Shown here in pieces: positions 617 through 25,904 of a stretch of 64,000 nt of DNA (position 1 is its first letter; the number at the start of each line of letters is the position of its first letter). The stretch spans positions 12,529-76,528 of the forward strand of contig CAIRJF010000028.1 of NCBI GenBank assembly GCA_903878805.1, written 5' to 3'. The DNA is from an uncultured Verrucomicrobia subdivision 3 bacterium (GTDB lineage Bacteria > Verrucomicrobiota > Verrucomicrobiia > Limisphaerales > UBA11358). The notes under the pieces were generated by a model that was not told the origin of the DNA, ran no database searches, and was given only the letters and a program-made list of their open reading frames with translations. A program made the translations under genes and the position numbers.

Positions 617-1291
617 TTATTTCAAATTCGCGTCCGCACCGAGCATGGACGAAAAGAAATCGCCGCCGCGCAAGGCAACCAGCACGGCCAAGCCCGCGAG
701 ATCAGCAGGCGTCTTCACATTTTTCATGACGAAATTATCAATGCCAATTCTCTGCTCGCGATTGTTGCCCACATCTTTCAAATCAATAAATCGCGCCGTG
801 CCGACGGACACGTTCAGCGCGTCAATGCCTTGAAAATCCAAGCCAGTTCGCTGCTTGAATTCCTTCAACCCCGCGTTACCGCCGCCTTTCGCGCCTTTTT
901 TCGGCAGCGCGACGCCGAGCGCAAACAGGTTCGTCTGGCCGGCTTCGTTTCGCACGATGTCGAGTTCGTCAAGATTGAAGCGCATCAACGTGACGTGAAT
1001 CTGATTTTTCGCCAACGCCGCGCGGTCATATTCGACGTGGATTTCCGGGATGCTCAAAAACGGCGTGCCGCCAAACGCGGGCGGGTTGTAAATTTTGAAG
1101 TCTTTGATGGTCACGACCGGCTCAGTGAGGCCGAGATGAAATGTCCCGATCTCCGCATCCATGCCCGTCTGCGCGCGAATGCGGTTCTCAGCCACCACGC
1201 GCAAAATCGAGTCGAGCGAGAGCAAGAAAACCACCGCCAGCACAATCACCAGCAGCACCGCGCCAAAAAACCATTTCAAAATCGTTTTCAT
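617..1291 (-). CDS. AsmA-family periplasmic protein with N-terminal membrane anchor
   Basis: N-terminal TM helix followed by an AsmA-like beta-rich region (VTIKDFKIYNPPAF...IPEIHVEYD...RNEAGQTNL). ATG at 1291. Confidence 0.65.
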   Translation of the reverse strand: MKTILKWFFGAVLLVIVLAVVFLLSLDSILRVVAENRIRAQTGMDAEIGTFHLGLTEPVVTIKDFKIYNPPAFGGTPFLSIPEIHVEYDRAALAKNQIHVTLMRFNLDELDIVRNEAGQTNLFALGVALPKKGAKGGGNAGLKEFKQRTGLDFQGIDALNVSVGTARFIDLKDVGNNREQRIGIDNFVMKNVKTPADLAGLAVLVALRGGDFFSSMLGADANLK

Positions 1292-1292
1292 G

Positions 1293-1952
1293 TTACAGCC
1301 GCACATCTTCCGGCCGCACTTCCAGACATTCGTCCTGATCTTCCCAAATCACCGCTGCGTAACTATCCAAAAGTTTTGGCGCGAGTTCGCGACCGGCGAT
1401 GGACAAAAGTTTTTCCGCCGTCTGCGCCGCGTTTTCGTAAGCGCCATCGTAATTGCCTACGCGCTTGCGCTGACGGTCGTCCCAATGCGCGACGGCGTGA
1501 ATCGGTTCGTATTCCTTCGCCCACGGTTCGAAGATAACACGTAGTTCAATCGGCAATTCATCGAACGGCACGAGGATTTCGTTGCAATGCTGGCAGATTA
1601 AACCTTCCGTGCGAACATCGCGCGTGAGCAACGGGAGAAACGGCGCGCGGCAGCACGGCGATTCTGCGTAGGCGGCGGGCGCGGTGGCGAGACGTTTGTG
1701 CCAGATTTGCCGACTGTGCGCGACCTGCGCGGCGAGGCGATACGCGCCGACAAGCGGATGCGACAGCCGCCACGCGCGACCTTCAAGTTGGCCGAGCGTC
1801 TGTGCGAGCCAGCGCGCGAGCGTGAGGTCGTCCCACGCCGAAAACGAGCGCGCGTATTCCGTCCATAACGAATCGAGCGGCGAACTTGAAGCCATTTCCA
1901 TCGTCACAGTCTGGCGCGGGAAAAATGTTTTGTCGAGCGGCGTTGAACTCAA
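1293..1952 (-). CDS. Hypothetical protein with putative Zn-binding Cys pairs
   Basis: Tightly packed between its neighbours on the same strand; CCRAP...CQHC motif. Start uncertain. Confidence 0.7.
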   Translation of the reverse strand: MSSTPLDKTFFPRQTVTMEMASSSPLDSLWTEYARSFSAWDDLTLARWLAQTLGQLEGRAWRLSHPLVGAYRLAAQVAHSRQIWHKRLATAPAAYAESPCCRAPFLPLLTRDVRTEGLICQHCNEILVPFDELPIELRVIFEPWAKEYEPIHAVAHWDDRQRKRVGNYDGAYENAAQTAEKLLSIAGRELAPKLLDSYAAVIWEDQDECLEVRPEDVRL

Positions 1953-2503
1953 CTCGCTAGCGGCGCGCCCACATTAATTTTGTGCTTCAAACAATAAGCG
2001 CCGTTGTCCACATACTTTTGCGCCCACCATTTTAAGCCGGCGCGTTCTTCCTTCGTCAGTTTGCGGACGACTTTCGCGGGCGCACCGAGCACGAGCGAGC
2101 CGGGCGGAATTTTCGTTCCCTGCGTCACGAGTGCCTTCGCGCCGATGATGGATTGTTTGCCGATGACCGCGCCGTCCAAAATCACCACACCCATGCCGAC
2201 CAACACTTCGTCGCCGACCGTGCACGCGTGCACAATCGCGCCGTGGCCGACAGTCACCCAGTTGCCGAGCACGCACGGAAATTTATCCGCGAGATGCAGC
2301 ACGGCGTTGTCCTGAATGTTCGTGTGATGGCCGACGACGATGCGGTTGATATCGCCGCGCAACACCGCGCCATACCAAACGCTGCTGTGCGCGCCGAGCG
2401 TCACGTCGCCGATGACCACGCCGCTGCTGGCGATGAAAACGCCTTTGCCGAGCTTCGGTTTTTTGCGGAGAAAAGTATCAAGCTGTTTATCGAGTTCGCC
2501 CAT
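1949..2503 (-). CDS. Gamma-class carbonic anhydrase family (YrdA-like) hexapeptide-repeat protein
   Basis: VIGDVTLG..SSVWYGAVLRGD, NIQDNAVLH, VTVGHGAIVHAC. Confidence 0.9.
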   Translation of the reverse strand: MGELDKQLDTFLRKKPKLGKGVFIASSGVVIGDVTLGAHSSVWYGAVLRGDINRIVVGHHTNIQDNAVLHLADKFPCVLGNWVTVGHGAIVHACTVGDEVLVGMGVVILDGAVIGKQSIIGAKALVTQGTKIPPGSLVLGAPAKVVRKLTKEERAGLKWWAQKYVDNGAYCLKHKINVGAPLAS

Positions 2504-2547
2504 GCGGAAATTTTAACACGAAGCGGCGGCTGAAGCACAGAATCTTT

Positions 2548-2608
2548 GACACGGATTGCACGGATTAACACAGATTAAAAATCCGTGAAAATCTGTGCAA
2601 TCCGTGTC
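2548..2608. repeat. Inverted-repeat element built from 9-10-bp CACGGATT units
   Basis: GACACGGATTGCACGGATTAACACAGATT ... ATCCGTGAAAATCTGTGCAATCCGTGTC. Confidence 0.8.
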
Positions 2609-2690
2609 TGCATTTGGTTGTTAAGCGAAAACGCTTGAAAAACTATTTTGGCAGGCGCAACCTCGAATCCATGAAACAAGGCGGGTCATT

Positions 2691-3137
2691 ATGAGTGCCG
2701 AAGAAAATCGTAAGCGAATCCAAGAGTTGAGATGGGTTGGTTTCCAAAGGCTTTTAGCAGGCATTGCAATTATTTTTGGTGTGAGCTGCGTTTTTTTTAT
2801 TTTTTTAGACGAGCAGGCTGGCTCGCGACCTCACTATTCTTATTCGAGCGGAAAAGCATTGGGTCTGCTGCTGTTTGCCGGAGTGTGGGGTTTGTGGAAT
2901 ATCGTGCGAGGAATTATTTATCTTATCCGCGCGCAATCTGGCGACGAGCACTATGCAAAAAAGGTAGTGGATACAATGGATAAAGTTGAAAGCAAGCAGG
3001 AAGAAGTGATGGGAAAGCAAATCGGGAAAGACGGCTCGCTGCACAACGTGTTAGTGTTATTGGTTTGGATTTTTCTATTTCTAGCTGTGATTGGAGCTAT
3101 TTGCATTGGTTATTTATTTTGGACGAAACCGACCTAA
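2691..3137 (+). CDS. AT-rich hypothetical membrane protein (3 TM)
   Basis: 148-aa ORF with three hydrophobic segments; visibly lower GC than its neighbours. Confidence 0.7.
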   Translation: MSAEENRKRIQELRWVGFQRLLAGIAIIFGVSCVFFIFLDEQAGSRPHYSYSSGKALGLLLFAGVWGLWNIVRGIIYLIRAQSGDEHYAKKVVDTMDKVESKQEEVMGKQIGKDGSLHNVLVLLVWIFLFLAVIGAICIGYLFWTKPT

Positions 3138-3233
3138 TAGTTAGACAAGTTGCAAATTTCTTCCGCAACCTTCGCGCGAGATTTTAATTTTCAAATTGGT
3201 CGAACGCGTTGCGAGTGCTAGAGTTTCCGCGCC

Positions 3234-4163
3234 GTGACCAAACCATCCGCCAGCCGTCCCGTGCCGCCGCGCCGCAAGTTGCCGCGCTCGTTCAAGGATT
3301 TGACGCCGGCCAAACACTTCAACCCGCGCACTTTTTTTCACGAGCTGATTCTCAAAGGCTGGTTCACGCCGCGCACCGGCACGCATCGTCCGCCGATTTT
3401 TCCAAAATTAAAACGTCGTCAGGTCGCCATCACTTGGATTGGTCACGCGTCCTTTTTAATCCAGTTCGACGACTTGAACGTGCTCGTGGATCCAAATTTT
3501 GCGAACTGGCTTTTTCTCCTGAAGCGGCTAAAGCGCTCCGGCCTGCGCGTGCAGGATTTGCCGCCGATTGATTTGGTTCTGCTCACGCACGCGCACTTCG
3601 ACCATTTTCACAAACCGACGCTGCGCAAATTGCCGTCCACGAAAATCGGCATCATGCCGTGGGGCGTTGGCGACCTCGCGAAAAAACTCGGCTTCGCGCG
3701 CATCGTGGAGCTGGACTGGTGGGAAAGTTTTTCGCAGGGCGATTGGAAGGTGACGTTCACGCCGAGCAAACATTGGGGTGCGCGCACGTTGCACGACCAT
3801 CATCGCGGCTACGGCGGATTCGTCCTGGAGCATCAAGGCCGGAAAATTTATCACGCCGGCGACAGCGCGTATTTTGAAGACTTCGCGGAAATCGGCGAAA
3901 AGTTGCGGCCGGAAATCGCGTTGCTACCCATCGGCGCGTATCACCCGGAAAGTTTCCGCAAAGTCCACATGGGCCCGGACGAAGCAGTGCAGGCGTTCAA
4001 AGATTTGCGCGCAAAAGTTTTTGTGCCGATGCACTACGGCACGTTCAAATTGTCCTTTGAAGACATGGCCGAACCGCCGCGCTGGCTCAAGGAAATCGCC
4101 GCGCAACAAAAACTCACGTCGCGCCTGAAAATTCTCGACGAAGGTGTGCCCAAGGTGTTTTGA
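3234..4163 (+). CDS. MBL-fold metallohydrolase (NAPE-PLD/RomA-like)
   Basis: TWIGHASF, THAHFDH, HAGDS, ALLPIGAY, HMGP, PMHYGTF motifs. Confidence 0.88.
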   Translation: MTKPSASRPVPPRRKLPRSFKDLTPAKHFNPRTFFHELILKGWFTPRTGTHRPPIFPKLKRRQVAITWIGHASFLIQFDDLNVLVDPNFANWLFLLKRLKRSGLRVQDLPPIDLVLLTHAHFDHFHKPTLRKLPSTKIGIMPWGVGDLAKKLGFARIVELDWWESFSQGDWKVTFTPSKHWGARTLHDHHRGYGGFVLEHQGRKIYHAGDSAYFEDFAEIGEKLRPEIALLPIGAYHPESFRKVHMGPDEAVQAFKDLRAKVFVPMHYGTFKLSFEDMAEPPRWLKEIAAQQKLTSRLKILDEGVPKVF

Positions 4164-4181
4164 TTGGCGAAATTAAACGCC

Positions 4182-5645
4182 ATGTTTGAATTTGAACTGC
4201 CCGAAAAATTTCGCCGTTACGTCCCGCTGACGATCTGGCTGATTGTCGCGCTGACCATCCTTTTCATTCCGCTGAAAATTGTGAGCTATGGCTACCTGCC
4301 GGGCGACGATGCGTTGCGGCATTGCGCGAAAGCGGTCAGCGGCAAGCCGTGGCCGGAAATTCTGGTGGTCGGCAATACGTTCAAGATTGACCAGAGCATC
4401 GGCTGGCACGGCATCCTCGGCGCGGTGCATCAGGCGACCGGCTGGGGCGCGGAAAATCTCGTGACCTTTTCGGTCGTCGCGCTTTTCATTTTGGTGAATT
4501 CAGCTTTGTTGCCGTGGCTCAAAAGGCCGGAAGCGTGGCTCGTGGCGCTACTCGCGGCGATGATCGTTTCAGATTTGCCGCAGCGTTTTCTTCTTGGTCG
4601 CCCGTTCAACTTCACCATCACCGCGCTGATGCTAATTTTGTTCCTGACGCAAAAATTCCAGCCGTCGCTGAAATTTTTTCTGGCGTTCACGGGGCTGATT
4701 TTCGGCTGCACGTTCATCCACGGCGTGTGGTATTTGTGGCTGCTGCCGGTGGCGGCATTTTTTTTCGCGGGCGAATTCCGCTGGTCGCTGCTCGTGGCCG
4801 GCGCGTGGCTGGCGGGAACATTTTTTTCCGCGCTGCTGTCCGGCCATCCGTCGGATTATCTGGCGCACGCGCTGATGATGGCGGTGAACGGCGTCGGCCA
4901 GCACACGACGAACAGCACCGAGGTCGCGGAACTCCAGCCGTTTGGCGGCGACATTTTGGCCGTCATCATTTTCGGCGCGCTCGTGGCGCTGAGATTTTTT
5001 ACAAGGCCGGACGCCGTTTCCTTCACGCGCAGCCCGGCGTTCTGGCTGATGTGCGGCTGCTGGATTTTAAGTTTTCGCGTGAGCCGATTTTGGGAGGATT
5101 GGGGCTGGCCGGCGCTGATGGTTTTGATTGTGACGGAAGTGGAATTTTTACTGCTCACGAAATTTGCCGCCGATTCGTCGCGCCGGCTGCTGCTGGCAAT
5201 TATTTTGACGCTCGCCGCCTTTCTCTGCGTGACGAGCGATTTGAACGGCCGCTACACGAAAAATCTGGCGTGGCAGTTTCTCTCGGTGAAGGAGCATCCC
5301 GAACTTGCGGGCTGGATGCCAGACAAGGGCGGCATCTTGTATTCTGCGAGCATGGGAGTTTTCTACCAGACGTTTTACAAAAACCCGACCGCCGACTGGC
5401 GCTACGTCCTCGGCTTCGAGCCGGCGCTGATGCCCGCAGATGATTTTGCGACCTACCACAGCATCATGTGGAACAACGGCGACGCGAAGGCCTATGCGCC
5501 GTGGGTCAACAAAATGAAACCGGTGGATCGGTTGGTCGTCCCCGGCAACGGCAACGAGCGTCCGGGCATTGCGGGACTGGAATGGGATTACGCCGTGAGC
5601 GGCCTCTGGATTGGTCGCACGCCGAGAACGCAAATGCAGAAGTAA
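4182..5645 (+). CDS. Polytopic membrane protein, possible GT-C-fold glycosyltransferase
   Basis: About 10 TM segments, an acidic DD motif after TM1 (GDDALRH) and a C-terminal periplasmic domain. Confidence 0.6.
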   Translation: MFEFELPEKFRRYVPLTIWLIVALTILFIPLKIVSYGYLPGDDALRHCAKAVSGKPWPEILVVGNTFKIDQSIGWHGILGAVHQATGWGAENLVTFSVVALFILVNSALLPWLKRPEAWLVALLAAMIVSDLPQRFLLGRPFNFTITALMLILFLTQKFQPSLKFFLAFTGLIFGCTFIHGVWYLWLLPVAAFFFAGEFRWSLLVAGAWLAGTFFSALLSGHPSDYLAHALMMAVNGVGQHTTNSTEVAELQPFGGDILAVIIFGALVALRFFTRPDAVSFTRSPAFWLMCGCWILSFRVSRFWEDWGWPALMVLIVTEVEFLLLTKFAADSSRRLLLAIILTLAAFLCVTSDLNGRYTKNLAWQFLSVKEHPELAGWMPDKGGILYSASMGVFYQTFYKNPTADWRYVLGFEPALMPADDFATYHSIMWNNGDAKAYAPWVNKMKPVDRLVVPGNGNERPGIAGLEWDYAVSGLWIGRTPRTQMQK

Positions 5646-16445: not shown

Positions 16446-17537
16446 TCAAACAGTATGAAAGCGGGCGCGCAGTTTGAGCAAGGGCTTTTCCAGCAGATAA
16501 TAAGAGGCGTGCGCCGCGAGCAAGGCGGTCAGAATCCATGTAGGAAAACGCAGCCACCATGCGCTCGTGAGGCCAAAGACGGATTTTTCCGTGCCGCAAA
16601 ACATTTGCTGCCAGATGTAAATGGAGTAGGACAAAACTCCGATATGCCGCACCCATTTCCAATTCAAGGCGCGATAAAATCCGTATTCCGGCAGCAACAG
16701 ACTTTGCAGCATCAACAAGGTGAACCCGATGGCTTGAAAGGAGTCGAAACAGGTGGCGCCAAAACGTCCGTGGAACGGCAGCAGCCACGGCGAGAAAATC
16801 AAAAGCACGCCGGCGACCGGGATTTTGCCGGAATGTTTTTGGTAAAAGGTGGCCAGAGAATGCCGCCATTGATTGAACCAGAACGCGGCCAGACAGCCAT
16901 AGGCCAGCGAGTCAAATCGGGCAAAGAATGAACTGTTGGCAAACAGAAATTCCCAGCCCGCCGGATACAGTTGTTTGTAATGCAGCAGCCGGATGGTCGG
17001 GGCGACGATGACTGGCAGGAGCAAAACCTTTACCAGCTTCGTGGCGTCGGCGGAACGCTTGAACAAAACGACCAACAGGACGGGCCAGAATAAATAAAAT
17101 TGTTCCTCCACGCCCAATGACCACAAATGTCCGGCGGCAAGCGGCGGATGGAACATGATAAAATCCGTGGTGAAGGTCAGATTGCCCACCCACATGGCCG
17201 TGGCTTGGGTGTAGTGTGTAAAACAGGCCAGCACCAAAAGGTAGCAATAGCAGACGGGCAGGATGCGGAGGGCGCGGCGGATGTAAAAGTTTTTCAGGTT
17301 GATGCCGCCCGCCGCCGCCTGTTCCTGAATCAGCAGATGTGTGATGAGAAAACCGCTGATAACGAAGAAAAAGCGCACACCCCAGATACCAACCGCGTCA
17401 CAACAATTGAATAGTGTTTTGCTGGCGGTGGGAAACCCCGTGGTGAAAGTAGAATGCGAAATTAAAACTAGTGCGATGCTGATAGCCCGCCAGCCGTCGA
17501 GCGACGGCAGCTTGGAAGTGCGGGTGGGTTTGGTCAT
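16446..17537 (-). CDS. Acyltransferase-3 (OafA-like) O-acyltransferase
   Basis: LDGWRAISI, FFVISGFLIT, FYIRRALRI, HLWSLGVEEQFY, SYSIYIWQ. Confidence 0.9.
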   Translation of the reverse strand: MTKPTRTSKLPSLDGWRAISIALVLISHSTFTTGFPTASKTLFNCCDAVGIWGVRFFFVISGFLITHLLIQEQAAAGGINLKNFYIRRALRILPVCYCYLLVLACFTHYTQATAMWVGNLTFTTDFIMFHPPLAAGHLWSLGVEEQFYLFWPVLLVVLFKRSADATKLVKVLLLPVIVAPTIRLLHYKQLYPAGWEFLFANSSFFARFDSLAYGCLAAFWFNQWRHSLATFYQKHSGKIPVAGVLLIFSPWLLPFHGRFGATCFDSFQAIGFTLLMLQSLLLPEYGFYRALNWKWVRHIGVLSYSIYIWQQMFCGTEKSVFGLTSAWWLRFPTWILTALLAAHASYYLLEKPLLKLRARFHTV

Positions 17538-17565
17538 GGGTTTGTAAGCTTCGGATTATTACAAC

Positions 17566-18546
17566 TTAAACTTTTTTCCACCGCTCGCGCAACTGCACGA
17601 GTTGGGCGGTGGGCGGGAATTTCGCGAGGGCGTTTCGCAATTTGCGCTTGTGATGACGACGGTAAAAATCCCACCGGCAGCGCAGCCTTTCAACAAAATT
17701 TAGATTCAGAGTGCGGCAGGCCAGATATACTTCCGGCCGGATGATGTAATAAGGATAATTATATCCCGCCCAGTGAATCAGGGGGAGCGATTTACCGTCG
17801 GGTAACGTGGCGCGTCCGCTGCGCCGGTCAAAGCGGAAGGGCACGGTGGCAAAGACGGAACTGCTCATCGTTGGGAACAGCTCGGTGATTAACGCCAGCC
17901 GCCGCCGCAACCGGTGCATGGTGTAATTCAGGAACGGCTGGTCAATGGCGCTGACCTTGAGCTGGTCGCGGAGTTGCGCGGCTTCCGGGGCGAGCCGCCC
18001 GCGATCTGCATCCGACACCAAACCTTTGCGCGCGACGAATACACCGGCATTGAACCCTTGCGCCTGATGCGTGGCGATCATTTGCGCCGCCAGTTCCGGC
18101 AGATAAACTTGGCTCATGTCGGGGTCAAAATAAACGAGGTCATAGGGCGACGCGGCAAACGCCGTCAAAATTTCCTGCAGCGAGGAGGTCACGACGATGT
18201 CGGCATCGAGATAAATAAATTCGTCATACGGCCCAGCGAACGCGGCGTGTTTGCGGAACATCCCCGCCGCCAGCGGCGAGCCGTTGACCTGTTGCGCCAG
18301 CGCGTCAAAGCGGCGGCAGGGCGCTTCGTCCAAAATGTCGAAGCGGAGTTGCGGCGCTAATTTTCTTAACTCCGCCAGCGCATCGTTGTAGGGAATGACG
18401 GTCACCGGCAGCTCGGGGTCGTGCCGCCGCAGACTATGAACCAACGCCAAAAATGCTTCGATTACAGCATCGTTGGCCAGCACATAAACGCCCCGCTTGG
18501 GTGGCAGCTTATTTTCCGCGACAACGCTTTTTTCAACGACAGGCAT
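17566..18546 (-). CDS. GT8-like glycosyltransferase (resembles the Npun_R2821/R2822 family)
   Basis: GVYVLANDAV, YLDAD (DxD), FNAGVF, DQPFLNY, IHWAG. Confidence 0.75.
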   Translation of the reverse strand: MPVVEKSVVAENKLPPKRGVYVLANDAVIEAFLALVHSLRRHDPELPVTVIPYNDALAELRKLAPQLRFDILDEAPCRRFDALAQQVNGSPLAAGMFRKHAAFAGPYDEFIYLDADIVVTSSLQEILTAFAASPYDLVYFDPDMSQVYLPELAAQMIATHQAQGFNAGVFVARKGLVSDADRGRLAPEAAQLRDQLKVSAIDQPFLNYTMHRLRRRLALITELFPTMSSSVFATVPFRFDRRSGRATLPDGKSLPLIHWAGYNYPYYIIRPEVYLACRTLNLNFVERLRCRWDFYRRHHKRKLRNALAKFPPTAQLVQLRERWKKV

Positions 18547-18548
18547 AA

Positions 18549-19934
18549 TCAGGAATTGGACAAGGCCGTTGGCGGGATGACACCGGACGCTTCGCTTTCA
18601 TACTCGCGGCGCTTGGTTTGATAAATTTTGCAGACGGGAATAAAAATCACCCAGATGGCGAACGCGTAGCCCATGGCCTCGCCCGTGATGCCCCAGAGCC
18701 GGACCAGCGGCAGGATGAACGTCACGCTCAATACCGCGCACGCCACCGACACCCACATATACGGCTCGCGTTTGTGGGCGCGCAACCGCAAGGCCATCAC
18801 GCCGAAGAGGGTTTCCACCACCGCGCCGCCGGCCAGCCACGCGTTGGCCGCAAAGGGCGCGAGGCGTGCCGGCACGCGGGGCAAGAAGTGGCCGACGAAC
18901 GGCAGCGCCGCCAGAAATGCGCCCATGCCCAGCACACAGATAACAAAGGTCTGGAGACCGCTGCGCCGCCAGAGCGCGTCCAATTCCTGCCAACTGCGCG
19001 CGGCAATCAGCATCCCAAACTTGGGCGACTTGGTGCTCGCCCAGCTCATAGAGAAATTGGCAATCATGCGGACGAGTTGAAAACTCATGCCCAGTTGTCC
19101 CGCCGCCACCGGGCCGCAAAAGTAAAACGCGATGGGATTGATGATGTCGGTCACAAACCAGCCGGACATCCAGCTCACGGCGATGCGCCATTGGAACGGC
19201 CAAATTTCACGCGCCCACGAAACTTCGCCATGCTGCGGCCGCGCCAGAAACTGGCACAGAAACGGTTTCCACCGCACGAGAAGATAGCCCACGGAAAACA
19301 GCAAACTGAACGCCGCGCCAATCGCCGAGGCATAAATGCCCGCGCCCGAAATGAGCGCAATGACGTTCGCCCCAAAGCTCGCCAGCGCCGCCCAGAAACG
19401 GAACTTCGCCAGCACCGCAATCTGGTTGCAACCTTGCAGCAGCGACCACGCCGGATTGATGGCGAGTGAAAATGCTGCCGTCACGGCGATGAGCCACCAC
19501 GCGCCCTGCCAATGAACCGCATGATTGCCGGAGATGCTGAAAAATATGTGTCCGCCAATGCCCACCGCCACCAGAAAAATGGCGGCGGCCGCCGCGTAAT
19601 AGCCGAACGCGAGCCGACCCAAAGAAATGAGCCGCGACTTGGCCACAAGATCGCCCGCGACGGTTTGCGCCGGAGTGAAATGCAGTTTCGCAAATTCGTG
19701 CGCGGCGAACTGGAGGATGTTCTGCGAAAAACCCATTTCCAAAAACACCTGCATCGCGACCACCCCGGCAAACGCATAAAAGTAGCCTTGGATTTCCGGC
19801 GTGAGAAATTTCAGCACCAGCGCCATCGTGATGGGGCCGGTGAAGAGGCGCAGCAACTGCGCGGCGTTGGAAAAAAACACCGCGCGATCCACGCCCGCCC
19901 AGCGCCGGAATTGGTGCAGACGTTGGAGCATCAA
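18549..19934 (-). CDS. Wzx-like polysaccharide flippase
   Basis: About 12 TM segments with LTPEIQGYFYAF, QWRIAVSW and LRAHKREP; adjacent to the glycosyltransferase. Confidence 0.8.
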   Translation of the reverse strand: MMLQRLHQFRRWAGVDRAVFFSNAAQLLRLFTGPITMALVLKFLTPEIQGYFYAFAGVVAMQVFLEMGFSQNILQFAAHEFAKLHFTPAQTVAGDLVAKSRLISLGRLAFGYYAAAAAIFLVAVGIGGHIFFSISGNHAVHWQGAWWLIAVTAAFSLAINPAWSLLQGCNQIAVLAKFRFWAALASFGANVIALISGAGIYASAIGAAFSLLFSVGYLLVRWKPFLCQFLARPQHGEVSWAREIWPFQWRIAVSWMSGWFVTDIINPIAFYFCGPVAAGQLGMSFQLVRMIANFSMSWASTKSPKFGMLIAARSWQELDALWRRSGLQTFVICVLGMGAFLAALPFVGHFLPRVPARLAPFAANAWLAGGAVVETLFGVMALRLRAHKREPYMWVSVACAVLSVTFILPLVRLWGITGEAMGYAFAIWVIFIPVCKIYQTKRREYESEASGVIPPTALSNS

Positions 19935-20048
19935 GACAGGCGGCGCTCAAGTCGGGCGGCGGTGAAAACAAGTTCGTTCATTGCTGGCAGGGCATCTTGC
20001 CTAGACCGGCAGTCCAAAGAAAGCGGAAAGCTGGGAAACCAACCAGAG

Positions 20049-20123
20049 CCGCGAACCAGACGAAATACGCGAACAAAAACAAATTTTCCGAACGGGTTTC
20101 GCGTATTTGGCAAATTTTGCGGT
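20049..20123. repeat. Degenerate inverted repeat of 9-bp CGCGAAATA-like units
   Basis: CCGCGAACCAGACGAAATACGCGAA ... TTCGCGTATTTGGCAAATTTTGCGG. Confidence 0.55.
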
Positions 20124-20187
20124 TGGCTGCTGATTCCAAAATTTCCACCAACCCGAGGCCGACGACGTTGTGGAACGAAACCGGCGG

Positions 20188-21132
20188 TTAAGTCAATTTT
20201 CCCAGCCGCCGTGCCCGTTCGGCTTCTAAATATTTCCTGGCAATGTCTGTGTCGCGCTCATGGAACACGGTGATGTCCATGTAATATATTTCGCTATTTT
20301 TCCCGTCGGCATAGTCATGCAGGTCTTTGATTTTCTCCCTTTCCGTCAGCGTGGCTGAACAGATGAATCGACCTTTAGCATCGTGAAAAGCGATGATGGA
20401 ATAGCCCAGTTCCGCGAGTGAGAAAAGGGTGTCCAACCCCGGTTCGCCGATGAGTTCCATGCTCTGCCGGTTGTATTCAAAAAAAATTACCGGCGAAACC
20501 TGCCGGAGAAAATTCGTAGCTCCGCGAATGATGGCGCAGTCAAAACCTTCTGTGTCAATCTTCAGCAGTTTGTAATTCTCCCCGCCCGGTTGCGTCACAA
20601 TGAAGTCGTCAAACCGCATGACCTTGATGGATTTGGTGGCCGCTGCCGTGCCCGGCAGGATGGTGGTGTTCCAACCGGCGCAGGCCAGACTGGCCGTGAT
20701 GGTCTCGGTTTTTTCCGCCAGAAACAACTTGTGCGCCGTGGTGTTCGAAAGTTGTATTACGTTTTTCTGAAGAAATTCAAAACTCTTGTCGTCGCCCTCG
20801 ATGCACAGCACCGGCACATCCTCCGCCGTTTTGATCAGGCACGCGGTGTCCCCGACATTGGCGCCGATGTCAACGACCGCCAAGCTGGAATATTTTTTCC
20901 GAGTAAGCGTGGTCAGCAGGCCAAGCTGACCAATGAAGCCGGGGTTAGATTCATAATACGAATACATCGGATTGATGCCGGGAACCTGAATGACATAACG
21001 GCCGACCCGCGTGGGGATGATCGCGTTTGGCAAATGCCATTTCACTTTGCGCGTGCGCTGGAGGGCAAAGCCCAACGGCGACAACGTCCAGTTGAGAGCG
21101 TTTTTGAAGCGGTGAAATAGGTTGAGCGGCAT
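20188..21132 (-). CDS. FkbM-family SAM-dependent methyltransferase
   Basis: VVDIGANVGD, KLLKIDTEGFD, PVIFFEY. Confidence 0.88.
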   Translation of the reverse strand: MPLNLFHRFKNALNWTLSPLGFALQRTRKVKWHLPNAIIPTRVGRYVIQVPGINPMYSYYESNPGFIGQLGLLTTLTRKKYSSLAVVDIGANVGDTACLIKTAEDVPVLCIEGDDKSFEFLQKNVIQLSNTTAHKLFLAEKTETITASLACAGWNTTILPGTAAATKSIKVMRFDDFIVTQPGGENYKLLKIDTEGFDCAIIRGATNFLRQVSPVIFFEYNRQSMELIGEPGLDTLFSLAELGYSIIAFHDAKGRFICSATLTEREKIKDLHDYADGKNSEIYYMDITVFHERDTDIARKYLEAERARRLGKLT

Positions 21133-21281
21133 GTAAATGAGAGTGAAAGCGCTGACTTCAGCAGCAGGGGTTGGTGGCGCGCAATTGTTTCATGGTTGAT
21201 TTACTCATGTTGCCGGACTCGTTAGTGCCGATTCAATACATTTTTGATCACATGCATTAACGTTTTGAGAAGCTGGCGGAG

Positions 21282-21689
21282 TCACTCCAAAACTTCAACC
21301 AGACCGATGCCCACGACGTTGTAAAACGAAACGGGGCGTCCGCCGAATAGCGGCGCGGGAGTGGCGGGCGAAATGCACATCGGGCGTAAACCTGCCGCTT
21401 CCAATCCGGCGAGTGCGGCGGCGATATTATCCGTCTCGTAGCAGAGGTGATAAATGATGCCGTTCGCGTGGCGTTGCGCGAGTTTGTCAATCGGGCCGGT
21501 GGTGTCGCCGGGCCAGATGATTTCTACCGCCGGATGCGCGGCGTGCGTGCAGAGTTGCAGGTGGATGTTTTGTGCGGGATCAAAAACAAATGCGCCCAAC
21601 GCATAGCCGAGCGCGGCGACAAATTTGCGCGCTTCGTCGGGACGCCGCACGGCGAGCCCGAAATGGTGAAAGGTCAGATGCGCGTTCAT
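21282..21689 (-). CDS. VOC-family (methylmalonyl-CoA epimerase/glyoxalase-like) protein
   Basis: FHHFGLAV, EII, YHLCYE, LVEVLE metal-ligand pattern. ATG at 21689. Confidence 0.8.
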   Translation of the reverse strand: MNAHLTFHHFGLAVRRPDEARKFVAALGYALGAFVFDPAQNIHLQLCTHAAHPAVEIIWPGDTTGPIDKLAQRHANGIIYHLCYETDNIAAALAGLEAAGLRPMCISPATPAPLFGGRPVSFYNVVGIGLVEVLE

Positions 21690-21695
21690 AAAATC

Positions 21696-21833
21696 AACCA
21701 CAGATAAACACAGATGGACACGGATACGGAGAAACTTTGACACTAATTACACGGATCTTCACTAAAAGAATTGGTGCCGATTCGTGAAATTCGTGTCTAA
21801 AAAATCGGTGTTTATCTGTGTGCATCCGTGGTT
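21696..21833. repeat. Nested inverted-repeat elements
   Basis: Outer arms AACCACAGATAAACACAGATGGACACGGAT / ATCGGTGTTTATCTGTGTGCATCCGTGGTT enclose inner arms GACACTAATTACACGGAT / ATTCGTGAAATTCGTGTC (21739-21797). Confidence 0.75.
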
Positions 21834-21841
21834 AAAATAGT

Positions 21842-23059
21842 TCAGCGTAGGACGGAGAAAATTTCTTTGATCTGCGGGAAGGTGTTCGCGAAGAAAATCA
21901 AACTCGCACCGCAGTAGCAAAATGTCAGCACCACAGCGATGGCACGAATCCATTGATTGTCGTTGTAGGCTTTGAATCGTTCGCGGCCCAATTTCTTTTT
22001 GAGGAAGATGGTGTAGTAATGATTCGCCACCACGCCGAGCGCGTGCACCGCGCCATAAGCGGCAAAGTTCCAGCCGCAGCCGTGCCAGATGCCGACGAGC
22101 AAAAACACAATCGTGATGGTTAGCGCGATGGCGTGGTCGGCCAGTTGGATGCCCATTTTGGTGACGAGGAATTTTGACAGCGGCGAGAACACGACATCGC
22201 GCATCCACACGGACAGCGTGATGTGCCAGCGGTTCCAGAAATCCTTCACGTTGCGCGCGGCGAAGGGATTGTCGAAATTTTCCGGAACGGGAATGCCGAT
22301 GAGTGCCGCCGCGCCGATGGCCATGTCGCAGAAGCCGGAGAAGTTCAGGTAGAGATACAGATAATAAAACAGCATCGCCACCGGCAAATCCATCCAGTGA
22401 TGCGGATGGTCGTCGAGCAGCAGGCCGGAATAGGTGAGCTGGTTGCAGAGACCGGCGAGGAACAGGTATTTGACCGCGCCCACGAGGATGCGCAGCGCGG
22501 CGCGACCGACGGGAACTACGTAGCGTTCCGTAAAGCCGCGCCGGAAATTGGCGTAGGTGTTGATCGGGCCGACGGGCATGGTGGGCAGGAAAAAGGCGAA
22601 GTTGACGTATTCGAGGAAGTTCGGTTTTGGCACCGCGCCGTTGCGGATTTCCAAAACCAGTCGGCTGCACCGGAAGGCGAGATACGAAATGCCGATCATC
22701 TGCGGCACGCCGCGCCACGACTTGCCGAGCGCGTGGCCGAGCGCCACATACCATTCGCCCGGCACATAGCGCACGATAATCAACGCCGCGATGGGTGCAA
22801 AAAAGGCGAGCCACGGCCAGCGGCCGCGTTTATTCGCGAACAAAAGCAGGACGAAATAAAGCGCAACGATGAGCGCCAGATAAATGACGAAGCGCAAGAC
22901 GTAATGCTCCTTGCCACCATAAAAGAGGAACGCAAAAACGCTCGCAACATTCAGCCCGGCCAGCGTTGCTTCGCGGACATGTCCGCCGAGCTGCCGCATG
23001 GCGACGCGTCCGGCAAAAACATAAGCCAGCAGCCCGCCAATCAAATAAATCCTGTCCAT
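21842..23059 (-). CDS. MBOAT O-acyltransferase (DltB/AlgI family)
   Basis: GISYLAFR, GPI, YLNFSGFCDMAIG, PENFDNPF, FWNRWHITLS and catalytic-His motif VGIWHG. Confidence 0.92.
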   Translation of the reverse strand: MDRIYLIGGLLAYVFAGRVAMRQLGGHVREATLAGLNVASVFAFLFYGGKEHYVLRFVIYLALIVALYFVLLLFANKRGRWPWLAFFAPIAALIIVRYVPGEWYVALGHALGKSWRGVPQMIGISYLAFRCSRLVLEIRNGAVPKPNFLEYVNFAFFLPTMPVGPINTYANFRRGFTERYVVPVGRAALRILVGAVKYLFLAGLCNQLTYSGLLLDDHPHHWMDLPVAMLFYYLYLYLNFSGFCDMAIGAAALIGIPVPENFDNPFAARNVKDFWNRWHITLSVWMRDVVFSPLSKFLVTKMGIQLADHAIALTITIVFLLVGIWHGCGWNFAAYGAVHALGVVANHYYTIFLKKKLGRERFKAYNDNQWIRAIAVVLTFCYCGASLIFFANTFPQIKEIFSVLR

Positions 23060-23062
23060 GCG

Positions 23063-23185
23063 TCAGAACCCCTGATACACCACGCGGGCATTGAGCAAGT
23101 TGGCGGGCGCATTCAGCACCAGCCACACGGCGGCGAGCGACAGCACGACGACCAGCGTGTAGATGAGCCTTTCAATGACTTTCAT
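23063..23185 (-). CDS. DltX-like 40-aa membrane microprotein (acyl shuttle)
   Basis: Manual translation: MKVIERLIYTLVVVLSLAAVWLVLNAPANLLNARVVYQGF*. One TM helix plus terminal VVYQGF; stop lies 3 bp before the MBOAT ATG. Confidence 0.85.
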   Translation of the reverse strand: MKVIERLIYTLVVVLSLAAVWLVLNAPANLLNARVVYQGF

Positions 23186-23373
23186 AAAAGCGAATCAGCC
23201 GCGCGCGAAGGCCGCCGCCATCCGGGTTGAAGCAAAAGCCGGTCGCATGATTGACGCCAACCGATAGCAAGCCTGCCGCGCGTAGGCAAATTCAAAATCA
23301 AGCGGGTGCGAAATCTCTGTTCTCGGCATTTTTATCTGTGTCCATCGGTGTGCATCTGTGGTTTAATCCATCG

Positions 23374-24750
23374 GTGAACATTACAAATTTGAATCCCGAC
23401 TCAGACATCGGCTCAAGTGCGTGGATGGTCGAGTTGGACGAACATCGCATTTTGCTCGACGCGGGGATGCACCCGAAACGCGAGGGTCTCGACGCGGTTC
23501 CGCGTTACGGCAAGTCCGGCACGCATGACGTGGATGCGATCGCGATTTCGCATTGCCATCACGATCACGTCGGTTCGCTGCCGCTGGCGTGCCGGCAATT
23601 TCCCAAGGCGCACGTTTTGATGACGGAGTTGAGCTATCTGCTCATCGAACGCGTATTGCACAATTCCGTCAACGTGATGACGCGTCAGCGCGACGAGCTG
23701 GGCATCCGCGAATACCCGCTCTACACGCACGACGAACTGGACGACATCGCGGCGCATTTCCAGGGCTTCAAATATAATCGCGAAGTGGAATGGTCGGCGT
23801 ATCACAAGGCGCGCGCGGGGATGCCGTCGCCGACGCTGGAATTTTTTGACGCCGGCCACACGCTCGGTTCGGCGGGAATTTTATTGCGCGGAAAAAAGGA
23901 AACTTTGTTTTACACGGGCGACGTGTGTTTCCACGACCAGACGATTTTGAAAAGCGCGCGGTTCGAGGACGTGAAGGCGGATGTTTTAATTATGGAAACG
24001 ACGCGTGGCAATCGCGAGGTGCCAAAAGAATTCACGCGGGAAAAAGAAATCGAGCGGCTGGTGGCGGCGATTCACGCGGCGGAAAAAAAGAAGGGTGCGA
24101 TCATGATTCCGTCGTTCGCGCTCGGGCGCACGCAGGAAATGCTGGCGCTGCTGGCGCTGCTGATGCGCGAGGGCAAATTGAAGAAGCAGCCCATTTATAT
24201 TGGCGGGCTGGGGCGCGTGTTCACGGAGATTTACGACATTGAGGCCGCACGCACGCACCGGCAACACACGAATTTGCATTTGAACGACGCGCTGCAATTG
24301 ATTGTTTTGGAAAAAGGTCAGGCGGACAGCATGAAGTTGAGCGGCGGGAAAATTTTCGTCATCACGGCGGGCATGATGAGCGAGAACACGGCGGCGCACA
24401 CGCTCGCAACGCGGATGGTCGGTGACGAGAAGCAGAGTATTTTCTTTGTCGGTTACGCGGATCCAGATTCACCGGCAGGACATTTGAAGGCGGCGAAACT
24501 GGGCGAGACGTTTGTGTTCAGTCCGAGCGCGGGTCAGTTGACGAAGCGTTGCGACGTGCAGGATTTTGATCTGACGGCGCACGCGAATCGCGGCGACTTG
24601 CTGGAGTTCGTCGGCCAAGTTTCGCCGCGCGCGATTCTGCTCGGTCACGGCGATGACGCGGCGCGGAAATGGTTCGAGGAACAAATCAATTTGCGCTGGC
24701 CGAAGATCAAAGTTTATCAACCGCAACCGGCGAAGATGGTTTCGGTATAG
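23374..24750 (+). CDS. MBL-fold beta-CASP ribonuclease
   Basis: LLDAG, SHCHHDH, AGHTLGS, YTGD, METT, PSFALGRTQE, TAHA, LGHG. The likely start is GTG at 23374; the longer track ORF reads through a repeat. Confidence 0.88.
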   Translation: MNITNLNPDSDIGSSAWMVELDEHRILLDAGMHPKREGLDAVPRYGKSGTHDVDAIAISHCHHDHVGSLPLACRQFPKAHVLMTELSYLLIERVLHNSVNVMTRQRDELGIREYPLYTHDELDDIAAHFQGFKYNREVEWSAYHKARAGMPSPTLEFFDAGHTLGSAGILLRGKKETLFYTGDVCFHDQTILKSARFEDVKADVLIMETTRGNREVPKEFTREKEIERLVAAIHAAEKKKGAIMIPSFALGRTQEMLALLALLMREGKLKKQPIYIGGLGRVFTEIYDIEAARTHRQHTNLHLNDALQLIVLEKGQADSMKLSGGKIFVITAGMMSENTAAHTLATRMVGDEKQSIFFVGYADPDSPAGHLKAAKLGETFVFSPSAGQLTKRCDVQDFDLTAHANRGDLLEFVGQVSPRAILLGHGDDAARKWFEEQINLRWPKIKVYQPQPAKMVSV

Positions 24751-24773
24751 TTATAAATTTATTTTTGCAAAGC

Positions 24774-24820
24774 AAAACCGCCGGACGAAAATTTTTTCGT
24801 CCGGCGGTTTTTTGTTTTTT
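24774..24820. terminator. Bidirectional intrinsic terminator
   Basis: AAAACCGCCGGACGAAA-att-TTTCGTCCGGCGGTTTTTT between convergent genes. Confidence 0.85.
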
Positions 24821-24827
24821 AGATTTT

Positions 24828-25904
24828 TCAGTGGCCGCTGACGATGTTCGCCAGGTTGAAAATGGGCAGGAACATACAGATGACCATGCCGCCGATGACG
24901 ACGCCGAGGAAGACGATGAGGAGCGGCTCGATGAGCGACATGAGCCCGGAGAGGATGCCTTCGATTTCTTCGTCAAGGAAGTCGGCGACACGTTCAAGCA
25001 TATTGTCAATGTTGCCAGTCTGTTCCCCGGCGCTCAGCATGCGGATGATCATGCTGGGGAAAACGGGATGCTTGGCCAGCGCGGCGGAAATGCCTTCGCC
25101 GCGTTCGATGTCGGTGGCGGAACTCTTGATGGCTTTTTCCATGACGGTGTTGCCGACGGTCTGGGAGACGATTTGCAGGACTTCAAGGATCGGCACGCCG
25201 CTGCGGACGAGTGAGGCCAGCGTGCGGGTGAAGCGGGCGAGGCAAATTTTATGCGCGATGGGGCCGAAGACAGGCAGCTTGATGCGGAGCTTGTCCCAGA
25301 AGTCGCGGCCTTGCGGGGTTTTGAGAAAATAAAACCAGCCCCATACGGCGGCCCCAACCAGCACCAGCAGATAAATCAGGTAATGTTGGACAATCTCACT
25401 TATGTCAATGAGGATTTGCGTGGGCGCGGGCAGCTTGGCGCCGAAGCCGGAATAAACCTCCTTGAACGTGGGAATGACCCGCACGAGCAGAAAGATGGTG
25501 ATGCCAATGGCCACGATGGTGACAACTGTGGGATACATCAGCGCGGTTTTTACTTTTTTGCGGAGGCGCTCGGTGTTTTCCAAGTAAGTGGCGAGGCGGC
25601 CCAAAATTTCCGCCAACAAACCGCCTTTTTCACCGGCGGAAACCATGGAGACATAAAGTTTGTTGAAGGCCTTTGGGTGGCGGATCAGCGCTTCGGAAAA
25701 ACTTTCGCCACTCTCCACGCGCGTGCAGACATCGCGGATGGTGTCGCGCATGACTTTGTTCGGCGTTTGGTCGGCGAGCGCCTGCAGTGCTTGAACGATG
25801 GCGATACCGGCGTCAATCATCGTGGCAAGCTGGCGCGTGAAGACGACTAGGTCAGCCAGCGAAACTTTGCCGACGCGGCAGATAGTCAGCACAATTTGTT
25901 CCAA
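24828..25904 (-). CDS. pilC: Type IV pilus/T2SS platform protein PilC/GspF, N-terminus appears short
   Basis: FTRQLATMIDAG, AGEKGG, ARFTRTLASLVRSGVPIL, GEQTG, IEPLLIVFLG...MFLPIF. Confidence 0.85.
   Translation of the reverse strand: MEQIVLTICRVGKVSLADLVVFTRQLATMIDAGIAIVQALQALADQTPNKVMRDTIRDVCTRVESGESFSEALIRHPKAFNKLYVSMVSAGEKGGLLAEILGRLATYLENTERLRKKVKTALMYPTVVTIVAIGITIFLLVRVIPTFKEVYSGFGAKLPAPTQILIDISEIVQHYLIYLLVLVGAAVWGWFYFLKTPQGRDFWDKLRIKLPVFGPIAHKICLARFTRTLASLVRSGVPILEVLQIVSQTVGNTVMEKAIKSSATDIERGEGISAALAKHPVFPSMIIRMLSAGEQTGNIDNMLERVADFLDEEIEGILSGLMSLIEPLLIVFLGVVIGGMVICMFLPIFNLANIVSGH

Follow-up and report, generated by a model that had tools for sequence, protein, structure and literature searches.

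We analysed a 64,000-nucleotide stretch of contig CAIRJF010000028.1 (assembly GCA_903878805.1) from an uncultured Verrucomicrobia subdivision 3 bacterium, hereafter the window, in which a very small gene lies directly ahead of a gene for a membrane-bound O-acyltransferase (MBOAT). An earlier note had read the small gene as an acyl-shuttle microprotein of the DltX type. The open reading frame (ORF), at 23063..23185 on the minus strand, begins with ATG and comprises 40 codons followed by TGA; its translation is MKVIERLIYTLVVVLSLAAVWLVLNAPANLLNARVVYQGF. The encoded protein has a basic N-terminus (MKVIER) predicted to be cytoplasmic, a single transmembrane (TM) helix at about residues 7-24 (a hydrophobic stretch of ~18 residues), and a tail predicted to lie outside, which consists of the 10-residue linker NAPANLLNAR and the terminal hexapeptide VVYQGF. 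The codons of this motif occupy 23066..23083 (minus strand), and those at 23075-23077 encode Tyr37, the proposed acyl-carrying residue. A spacer of 3 nt (23060-23062) separates the microprotein TGA from the MBOAT ATG (23057-23059). On re-reading the sequence, the earlier description of a 40-codon, single-TM ORF that terminates in VVYQGF 3 bp before an MBOAT was found to be accurate.

The ORF is almost certainly a real, conserved gene. The genome holds 16,806 six-frame ORFs of 30-80 residues, of which nine end in Tyr-x-x-Phe and a single one combines a hydrophobic-hydrophobic-Tyr-x-x-Phe end with a TM-like stretch; this one is the microprotein, beside the only MBOAT of the genome. When this genome (G000) was compared with the related genome G027, the 34 aligned codons of the microprotein showed 14 synonymous and 5 non-synonymous differences, and five of the six VVYQGF codons differed, all synonymously. 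DNA alignment with the relatives demonstrated an in-frame loss of three codons (9 nt) after Met-Lys, with the ATG and the frame kept. A profile search of a large protein collection returned 166 related clusters at 90% identity (E<=0.001), the 40-residue protein of the window included. All of these clusters are labeled ‘hypothetical protein’ or are unnamed, and none carries a Pfam domain. Further 40-residue forms are present in public protein data, and the nearest clusters in a protein Atlas are unnamed proteins of 41-43 residues. The ORF itself had no match in Pfam or NCBIfam. Thus, the description of the microprotein as unannotated holds for its function but not for gene prediction, as the protein is present in public protein clusters. 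A chance ORF, or an untranslated leader ahead of the MBOAT gene, would fit with the shortness of the element, with the lack of a sigma-70-like promoter match upstream of the ORF in a scan that is uninformative for this kind of organism, and with the lack of a strong Shine-Dalgarno sequence before the microprotein. We consider this explanation extremely unlikely, as it is contradicted by the genome-wide uniqueness of the ORF, by the mostly synonymous codon changes, and by the conservation beside orthologous MBOATs described below; also, Rfam gave no match within 22700-23700 at E<=1, which argues against an untranslated leader.

The adjacent MBOAT (21842..23059, minus strand) is 405 residues long and matches the Pfam MBOAT family at E 4e-20. 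It aligns along the whole NCBIfam DltB model TIGR04091, scoring 214 bits where the equivalog cut-off stands at 375, and only two PDB sequences matched at E<=0.001, both of them DltB at E 1e-38. Judged by sequence, the enzyme is a relative of DltB and not an equivalog. Its C-terminus, ...PQIKEIFSVLR, bears no fused Tyr-x-x-Phe, and we can therefore confirm the proposal of a DltB-like MBOAT that lacks its own motif. It is the sole MBOAT match in the 2.29-Mb assembly (40 contigs, 94% complete). Residues His279 (RWHITLS) and His326 (GIWHGCGW) are invariant in 19 sequences and align with the RWH and WHG histidines of DltB 6bug. Co-folding of the microprotein with the MBOAT, run without controls, gave ipSAE values of 0.11 and 0.21 relative to a mark of 0.32.

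Conservation of the pair was evaluated first among 61 related genomes. Three of these, G027, G010, and G038, carry a full-length orthologue of the MBOAT (59-87% identity), and G059 carries a relative at 36% identity; in each of the four a small ORF that ends in VVYQGF, LVYKGF or VLYKGF lies by the MBOAT. Public genomes were scanned by MBOAT alignment with one genome per species, giving 80 loci, the closest 18 of which (L036-L053) fall in the upstream clade. All 17 of these with upstream sequence have the small ORF just upstream, and the eighteenth starts at the contig end. A matching small ORF thus adjoins 21 of 21 orthologous MBOATs with upstream sequence, and the Tyr and terminal Phe are invariant. 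The spacing from its stop codon to the MBOAT start ranges from -20 to +19 nt in these loci, with the MBOAT start picked as the one nearest to the small ORF, a rule that favours small gaps. In the alignment, Tyr37 and Phe40 are invariant in 19/19 sequences and remain so in 42/42 after the addition of downstream-type and database members, so that the proposed conservation of the terminal Tyr-x-x-Phe beside orthologous MBOATs was borne out. In one public locus, from a Chthoniobacteraceae metagenome-assembled genome (L040 2456-2845), the MBOAT frame stops after 129 residues while the similarity goes on, which could mean a pseudogene, a shift of the frame or an error in sequencing.

The position of the motif relative to the enzyme varies among DltB-like diderm loci. 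In the first layout, the microprotein lies upstream of the MBOAT (17 loci). In the second, found in L055, L057, L058, L060, L069, L070, L086, and G059, it lies downstream of the MBOAT or overlaps its 3' end, and the proteins end in ILYKGF, VYMRF, VYQNF and similar. In the third, the motif is fused to the MBOAT itself (L054, L056, L059, L061, L073, L077, L085, and L105), with ends such as IVYKAF. We also observed a fourth layout, in which the microprotein directly follows an acyl carrier protein (ACP) and lies ~1.5 kb before the MBOAT with one gene between (L063 849-968 and L083 863-988); these two microproteins end in VVVVAYQQF. For L062 and L079, no small motif ORF was found within the 2.5-kb flanks. 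The downstream layout suggests that the free microprotein may have originated when a fused C-terminus was split off. Of the long MBOATs of the related genomes, 25/25 end in F[IL]Y..F, one cut to 376 residues and the others 457-650 residues long. This agrees with the available text of PMC12148441, which describes a fused shuttle motif for PatA, AlgI, and others, and it supports the distinction that had been drawn between the fused motif of AlgI and PatA and the free motif of DltX. In Firmicute loci, a DltX-type ORF (...FIYNEF and similar) was present in 43/43, upstream of the MBOAT in 41 and downstream in 2. The 41 upstream ORFs sit beyond a presumed dltA, placed there from the 1.6-1.9-kb spacing. 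Two Streptococcus loci (L094 138-296 and L115 138-296) have a second DltX-like ORF of 52 residues with a FIYSEF end, ~0.3 kb before the regular dltX.

The microprotein and MBOAT of the relatives belong to a larger cassette. In G027, G010, and G038 the order is an FkbH-like enzyme (~620 residues), an 81-residue ACP, one to three copies of an SGNH gene, the microprotein, the MBOAT, and one or more candidate tailoring genes, namely a VOC gene in G010 and MaoC with SDR in G027 and G038. Of the 18 public upstream-type loci, 14 have FkbH, ACP, and a ~370-residue SGNH gene ahead of the microprotein and 16 have the SGNH gene; the exceptions are L042, which is without one there, and L043, which is without flank. 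Downstream of the MBOAT, a VOC gene is found in six of the 18 and MaoC in five. The downstream-type loci have FkbH and ACP upstream in 7/7, and in three of the seven, as well as in G059, the microprotein is followed by a different TM-anchored protein of ~350 residues with IGSS/IGDS and DxxH motifs. DltB-like MBOATs linked to FkbH and ACP were identified by name in Acidobacteriota, Verrucomicrobiota, Pseudomonadota, Campylobacterota, Bdellovibrionota, Planctomycetota, and other lineages, and the cassette of FkbH, ACP, SGNH, microprotein, and MBOAT is spread over several diderm phyla. Variants of the cassette were also seen. In the Bryobacteraceae locus L042 (1930-2324) the microprotein directly follows the ACP, an SGNH gene is missing from the interval, and the MBOAT ORF extends to 461 residues; this may be another SGNH-less or rearranged form. 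In G027, the VOC gene is present as two end fragments of 28 residues each with 89% identity (L032 10348-10431 and 11688-11771) that flank MaoC and SDR, and it looks as if the MaoC-SDR pair replaced or inserted into the VOC gene.

We placed the MBOATs in a FastTree phylogeny of 67 rows that left out two of every three Firmicute rows and every second AlgI row. The AlgI-type MBOATs split with support 100 from three groups: Firmicute DltB, the FkbH-linked clade with downstream or fused motifs, and the upstream clade. The window MBOAT and its 18 closest public loci form one clade with support 99, distinct from Firmicute DltB. The branching order of the three non-AlgI groups was not settled.

The ~370-residue SGNH proteins have an N-terminal TM helix. 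Their family counts over 550 members and has neither a Pfam domain nor a name. An AlphaFold model of the family was obtained with a predicted local distance difference test (pLDDT) score of 89.9 and a predicted template modelling (pTM) score of 0.90. With this model, the top eight rows of a Foldseek search were all DltD, at weak E values of 3.5e-3 to 1.4e-2, and none reached E<=0.001. The fold was therefore called from VIA-align, which gave Z-scores of 10-11 to many SGNH hydrolases, among them 1vyh_A (Z 11.1, root-mean-square deviation (rmsd) 3.9, 186 aligned), DltD 6o93 (Z 10.7, rmsd 4.8, 235 aligned), and PatB 7trr (Z 10.1, rmsd 4.2, 179 aligned). The conserved blocks of the family are GSS (residues 70-72) and [DN]-x-x-H-[FL]-N-x-N-G. 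As modelled, the ~370-residue protein is a membrane-anchored SGNH-fold protein that is placed like DltD or PatB. Within the 61 related genomes, the family is present in exactly G027, G010, and G038, the holders of an orthologous MBOAT, G000 being the exception. Tandem SGNH paralogues precede a single microprotein-MBOAT pair in G027 (two copies, L032 6521-8899) and in G010 (three copies, L033 5167-8756), and within one genome they share 45-54% mutual identity.

Downstream of the MBOAT, the window encodes a VOC/glyoxalase-fold protein (21282..21743, minus strand; Glyoxalase_4 1.4e-15) that has a weak match to methylmalonyl-CoA epimerase, below the cut-off, and whose similarity to the relatives begins at residue 19. 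The VOC gene likewise follows the MBOAT in G010 and in the six public loci noted above. Four further genes on the same strand (16446..21132) provide a glycan-locus context. These encode an FkbM-type methyltransferase (20188-21132), a Wzx-like flippase (18549-19934), a GT8-like glycosyltransferase (17566-18546), and an AT3 acyltransferase without an SGNH domain (16446-17537); the Wzx and GT8-like genes are also found downstream in G027. The glycan cluster thus codes for both types of membrane acyltransferase, AT3 and MBOAT. An OmpL-like beta-barrel porin, a type II secretion system F protein, and a MacB/HlyD pump are also encoded in the window, which fits with a diderm host, and the source names of the nearest homologues indicate Verrucomicrobiota. 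Elsewhere in the assembly, contig C22 has at its start a 1935-residue open frame (652-5418) with two adenylation-like and two PP-binding stretches that resembles a nonribosomal peptide synthetase.

At the level of the family, we consider it likely that the microprotein works as a free acyl shuttle in a Dlt-like relay that is fed by an ACP. The microprotein would be a single-pass inner-membrane protein whose extracytoplasmic C-terminal Tyr37 serves the adjacent MBOAT. In such a relay, the FkbH-like enzyme would charge the dedicated ACP with a glycerate-derived acyl group. The VOC protein may then tailor the acyl-ACP, as may the MaoC dehydratase with the SDR reductase, a guess for all of these proteins. 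Tailoring of the glyceryl-ACP made by FkbH, for example to a lactyl group, is chemistry that is found in polyketide loading modules. His326 of the MBOAT would catalyse the transfer, in which the acyl group leaves the ACP thioester on the cytoplasmic side and is received by Tyr37 of the microprotein on the outer side. The flexible C-terminal tail would then bring it to the Ser of the SGNH protein. Finally, the membrane-anchored DltD-like SGNH protein would esterify an envelope glycan exported by Wzx, a step for which G000 has no assigned enzyme. More tentatively, and with slightly less than even confidence, we propose a widespread diderm pathway of envelope modification in which an FkbH-derived glyceryl-ACP, a DltB-like MBOAT, a free Tyr microprotein, and an SGNH protein act together to esterify a glycan, with a pair in G000 that is maybe SGNH-independent.

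Several results weigh against the shuttle reading, some at the level of the family and others in this genome. First, none of 19 diderm microproteins matched Pfam DltX (PF12459) at E<=1, a search in which 15/15 Firmicute DltX controls matched (best E 1e-20). Similarly, hhalign against the 15 Firmicute DltX sequences gave a probability of 1.3% with 19 sequences and 1.8% with 42. A weak lead came from the Atlas, where 15% of the members of the cluster at rank 6 (score 0.87) carry PF12459. The microprotein is thus not detectably a DltX homologue, and homology of such short sequences may simply lie beyond detection. The label DltX-type is apt for the features that the microprotein has, a single TM helix, a hexapeptide at the C-terminus whose Tyr (position -4) and terminal Phe do not vary, and MBOAT linkage, but not as a statement of homology. 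Second, the first motif position (-6) in the diderm microproteins is V, I, L, A or T and not the F of FxYxxF. Third, the acyl-Tyr chemistry, the nature of the acyl group, its acceptor, and the membrane topology, together with every chemical step, are drawn by analogy with DltX/DltB/DltD and PatA/PatB. The glycerate-derived acyl-ACP as likely donor comes from gene neighbourhood only. The same applies to the acceptor, where the adjoining flippase, GT8-like, FkbM, and AT3 genes suggest a Wzx-exported polysaccharide.

These points bear on whether the C-terminus carries an acyl group at all. The microprotein could instead serve as a subunit, for structure or assembly, of either the MBOAT alone or an MBOAT-SGNH complex, with the Tyr and Phe used for binding. 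Conservation and linkage show that the C-terminus matters and not what its chemistry is, and the departure from FxYxxF at the first position would be compatible with a binding role. However, the same terminal motif is acylated in PatA, for which acyl-Tyr intermediates are reported in the available text of PMC12148441, where the same is cited for DltX; the motif is also always at the extreme C-terminus, whether free or fused. We therefore regard a purely structural role as improbable.

A second alternative retains the shuttle and assigns it to a true Dlt system, a D-alanylation pathway that a diderm acquired by transfer, for which Dickeya and Pectobacterium offer a reported precedent. Apart from this precedent, the evidence runs the other way. 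G000 has no DltA above the cut-off, the best match scoring 269 bits against 560 and lying within the 1935-residue multidomain ORF of C22, and neither Pfam DltD nor Pfam DltX was found. The genome has two stand-alone PP-binding ORFs of 85 and 87 residues, one of which is the FkbH-linked ACP; the other, on C37, is taken to be the fatty-acid ACP. In the relatives, the linked loader is FkbH with its own ACP, and the MBOAT clade lies apart from Firmicute DltB. Transfer of a D-alanylation system is very improbable, and with no DltA above the cut-off and no Pfam DltD we conclude that the pathway is not D-alanylation. As to the partners of a Dlt-like relay, a DltD-like SGNH protein and a carrier are indeed encoded alongside in the relatives, but the loader is FkbH-like and not DltA.

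Returning to the proposed shuttle, the remaining points against it concern its state in this genome, where the relay is incomplete. Four of the five parts are intact in G000, the microprotein and MBOAT in the window and FkbH (Pfam FkbH_N) and ACP (PP-binding) on contig C35, the latter two sharing 84-89% and 91-97% identity with their G027 and G010 counterparts. The FkbH-ACP genes lie between a radical-SAM/BATS gene and msrB and are unlinked from the MBOAT locus. The SGNH family is absent from G000, as tblastn at 1e-3 gave no match, a hidden Markov model of the family run over the six-frame segments reached E 0.039 at best, and the family search of the related genomes likewise found none; with 6% of marker genes unassembled in this 94% complete assembly, absence there is not absence from the cell. 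Four generic GDSL-type matches are present, all on other contigs and none linked to the MBOAT locus. A search of G000 for MaoC/SDR orthologues and for the protein family that accompanies the downstream-type loci as partner yielded only generic SDR matches.

What remains at the locus is a stump of the DltD-like SGNH gene, 17 codons at 23195..23248 on the minus strand (MRPAFASTRMAAAFARG then TGA), recognised by DNA alignment and ending 9 nt before the microprotein ATG. Compared with the SGNH N-termini of G027 and G010, the stump shows 76-80% identity over 15-17 residues (601-base target), and it retains 8/8 invariant N-terminal positions of the family. Against five SGNH gene starts, 33-37 of 51 nt are identical, compared with only 9-17 of 60 in the 60 nt before the stump. 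The bases at 23186-23205 resemble the 3' end of the intact SGNH gene of the relatives, with small deletions. Because the stump corresponds to the SGNH N-terminus and the bases that follow resemble the SGNH 3' end, the sequence indicates that the SGNH gene or genes were lost from the locus by internal deletion. A second break parts the locus from FkbH-ACP. A rearrangement breakpoint at the 5' end of the microprotein ORF (~23178, where the blastn match breaks) was considered and rejected, as the DNA alignment shows small indels with homology continuing into the SGNH remnant. The deletion junction is covered without difference by contigs that the same study assembled from three other samples (X2 22268-23250; X3 23061-23272; X4 22766-23225 and 23208-23409), and the run that is possibly the source of the window spans 20500-24891. 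Recurrence of the junction in three further samples argues that the deleted form exists in the population and did not arise as an assembly error.

This raises the possibility that the pair in G000 no longer functions and is what remains of a cassette disrupted by the SGNH deletion and the separation of FkbH-ACP. The stump, the lack of any family member in G000, and the recurrence of the deleted form as a population state are consistent with such decay, as is the presence of FkbH-ACP among housekeeping genes on another contig; G000 is also the sole one of the four related carriers without an SGNH gene. Contrary to this, none of the four ORFs (microprotein, MBOAT, FkbH, and ACP) is disrupted, the microprotein ATG and frame have survived the 9-nt in-frame loss after codon 2, and 6% of marker genes are missing from the assembly. 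The ratio of non-synonymous to synonymous rates (dN/dS) for the MBOAT is 0.12 against G027 and 0.11 against G010, relative to 0.145 for the G027-G010 pair, values that average the whole time since divergence, so that recent relaxation or loss would escape. The dN to the outgroup G038 is equal for G000 and the intact relatives G027 and G010 (0.363, 0.363, and 0.360), consistent with no rate acceleration. By these measures, the MBOAT still shows apparent purifying selection. On balance, we view a dead remnant as rather unlikely, and the chance that the pair still functions in G000 as about even; the last step is missing, a different enzyme now performs it, or decay of the system has just begun. 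The split Dlt-like relay of the earlier note is thus upheld in part, as a conserved gene with a likely shuttle role beside a DltB-like MBOAT, but not as D-alanylation and not as a relay that is complete in G000, where the SGNH gene is a stump and FkbH-ACP lies elsewhere.

We searched the literature for related systems. A full-text search, with most subscription journals outside its reach, found no paper that combines FkbH with DltB, and none from 2022 onward that combines MBOAT-SGNH with an acyl carrier protein. FkbH and MBOAT occurred together only in two papers on cyanobacterial aeruginosin-type protease inhibitors, which from their titles and abstracts were judged unrelated. DltX-, DltB-, and DltD-like terms were found only in the work of PMC12148441, in its available text, and in a paper on the SGNH fold. 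If the proposed relay is true, no acyl shuttle outside Dlt would have been free-standing before this microprotein, and the relay would be the first ACP-fed MBOAT system in Gram-negative bacteria. The locus points to an unrecognised acyl decoration, probably glycerate-derived, of diderm surface glycans, and a microprotein-MBOAT pair that was kept after SGNH loss may have an SGNH-independent output. The upstream, downstream, and fused positions of the shuttle provide a natural series for how it split from or joined the enzyme. More broadly, microproteins of ~40 residues can be the catalytic link of a pathway and yet be known in public data only as ‘hypothetical protein’ or not named at all.

The proposed relay shares features with several known systems. 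It resembles the FkbH-ACP glyceryl modules of polyketide and tetronate pathways in that an FkbH_N enzyme is followed by a stand-alone ACP. Those modules, however, feed a polyketide synthase or FabH-like enzymes in the cytoplasm, whereas here the ACP is linked to a membrane MBOAT relay, a combination that none of the papers searched describes. The dlt(X)ABCD genes known in Dickeya and Pectobacterium, whose operons are described as dltA-D in the available text of PMC5541007, are similar as a Dlt-type relay in a diderm; compared by description, they differ from the present locus, which by family models is without DltA, DltC, and DltD. With PatA/PatB, AlgI/AlgJ/AlgX, and other MBOAT-SGNH systems for O-acetylation, the relay would share the logic of transfer from MBOAT to Tyr to SGNH, the Gram-negative setting, and envelope glycans as targets. 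In the PatA/PatB and AlgI systems, according to the available text of PMC12148441, the motif is fused on extra MBOAT helices and acetyl-CoA is the donor, whereas in the present system a gene of its own encodes the motif, FkbH and an ACP are linked, and the AlgI-type enzymes form a separate clade.

The closest parallel is the Firmicute DltX-DltB-DltD system. Both have a free single-TM microprotein with a terminal x-x-Y-x-x-F, and in both the MBOAT is short and bears no fused motif; in our case, DltB structures are its closest solved relatives. The membrane-anchored SGNH partner of the relatives gave its longest alignment with DltD, and gene linkage suggests a dedicated carrier protein, not acyl-CoA, as the donor. 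Unlike Firmicute Dlt, the microprotein has no detectable DltX homology, the order is SGNH-microprotein-MBOAT and not X-A-B-C-D, the hosts are diderm, and the SGNH gene is deleted in G000. The loader is FkbH-like and not a DltA ligase, and the acyl group is therefore probably a C3 hydroxy-acid and not D-alanine. In the available text of PMC12148441, only Dlt is said to use a separate microprotein with a carrier-protein donor, the other systems having a fused shuttle and acyl-CoA; the locus described here and its relatives break this division.

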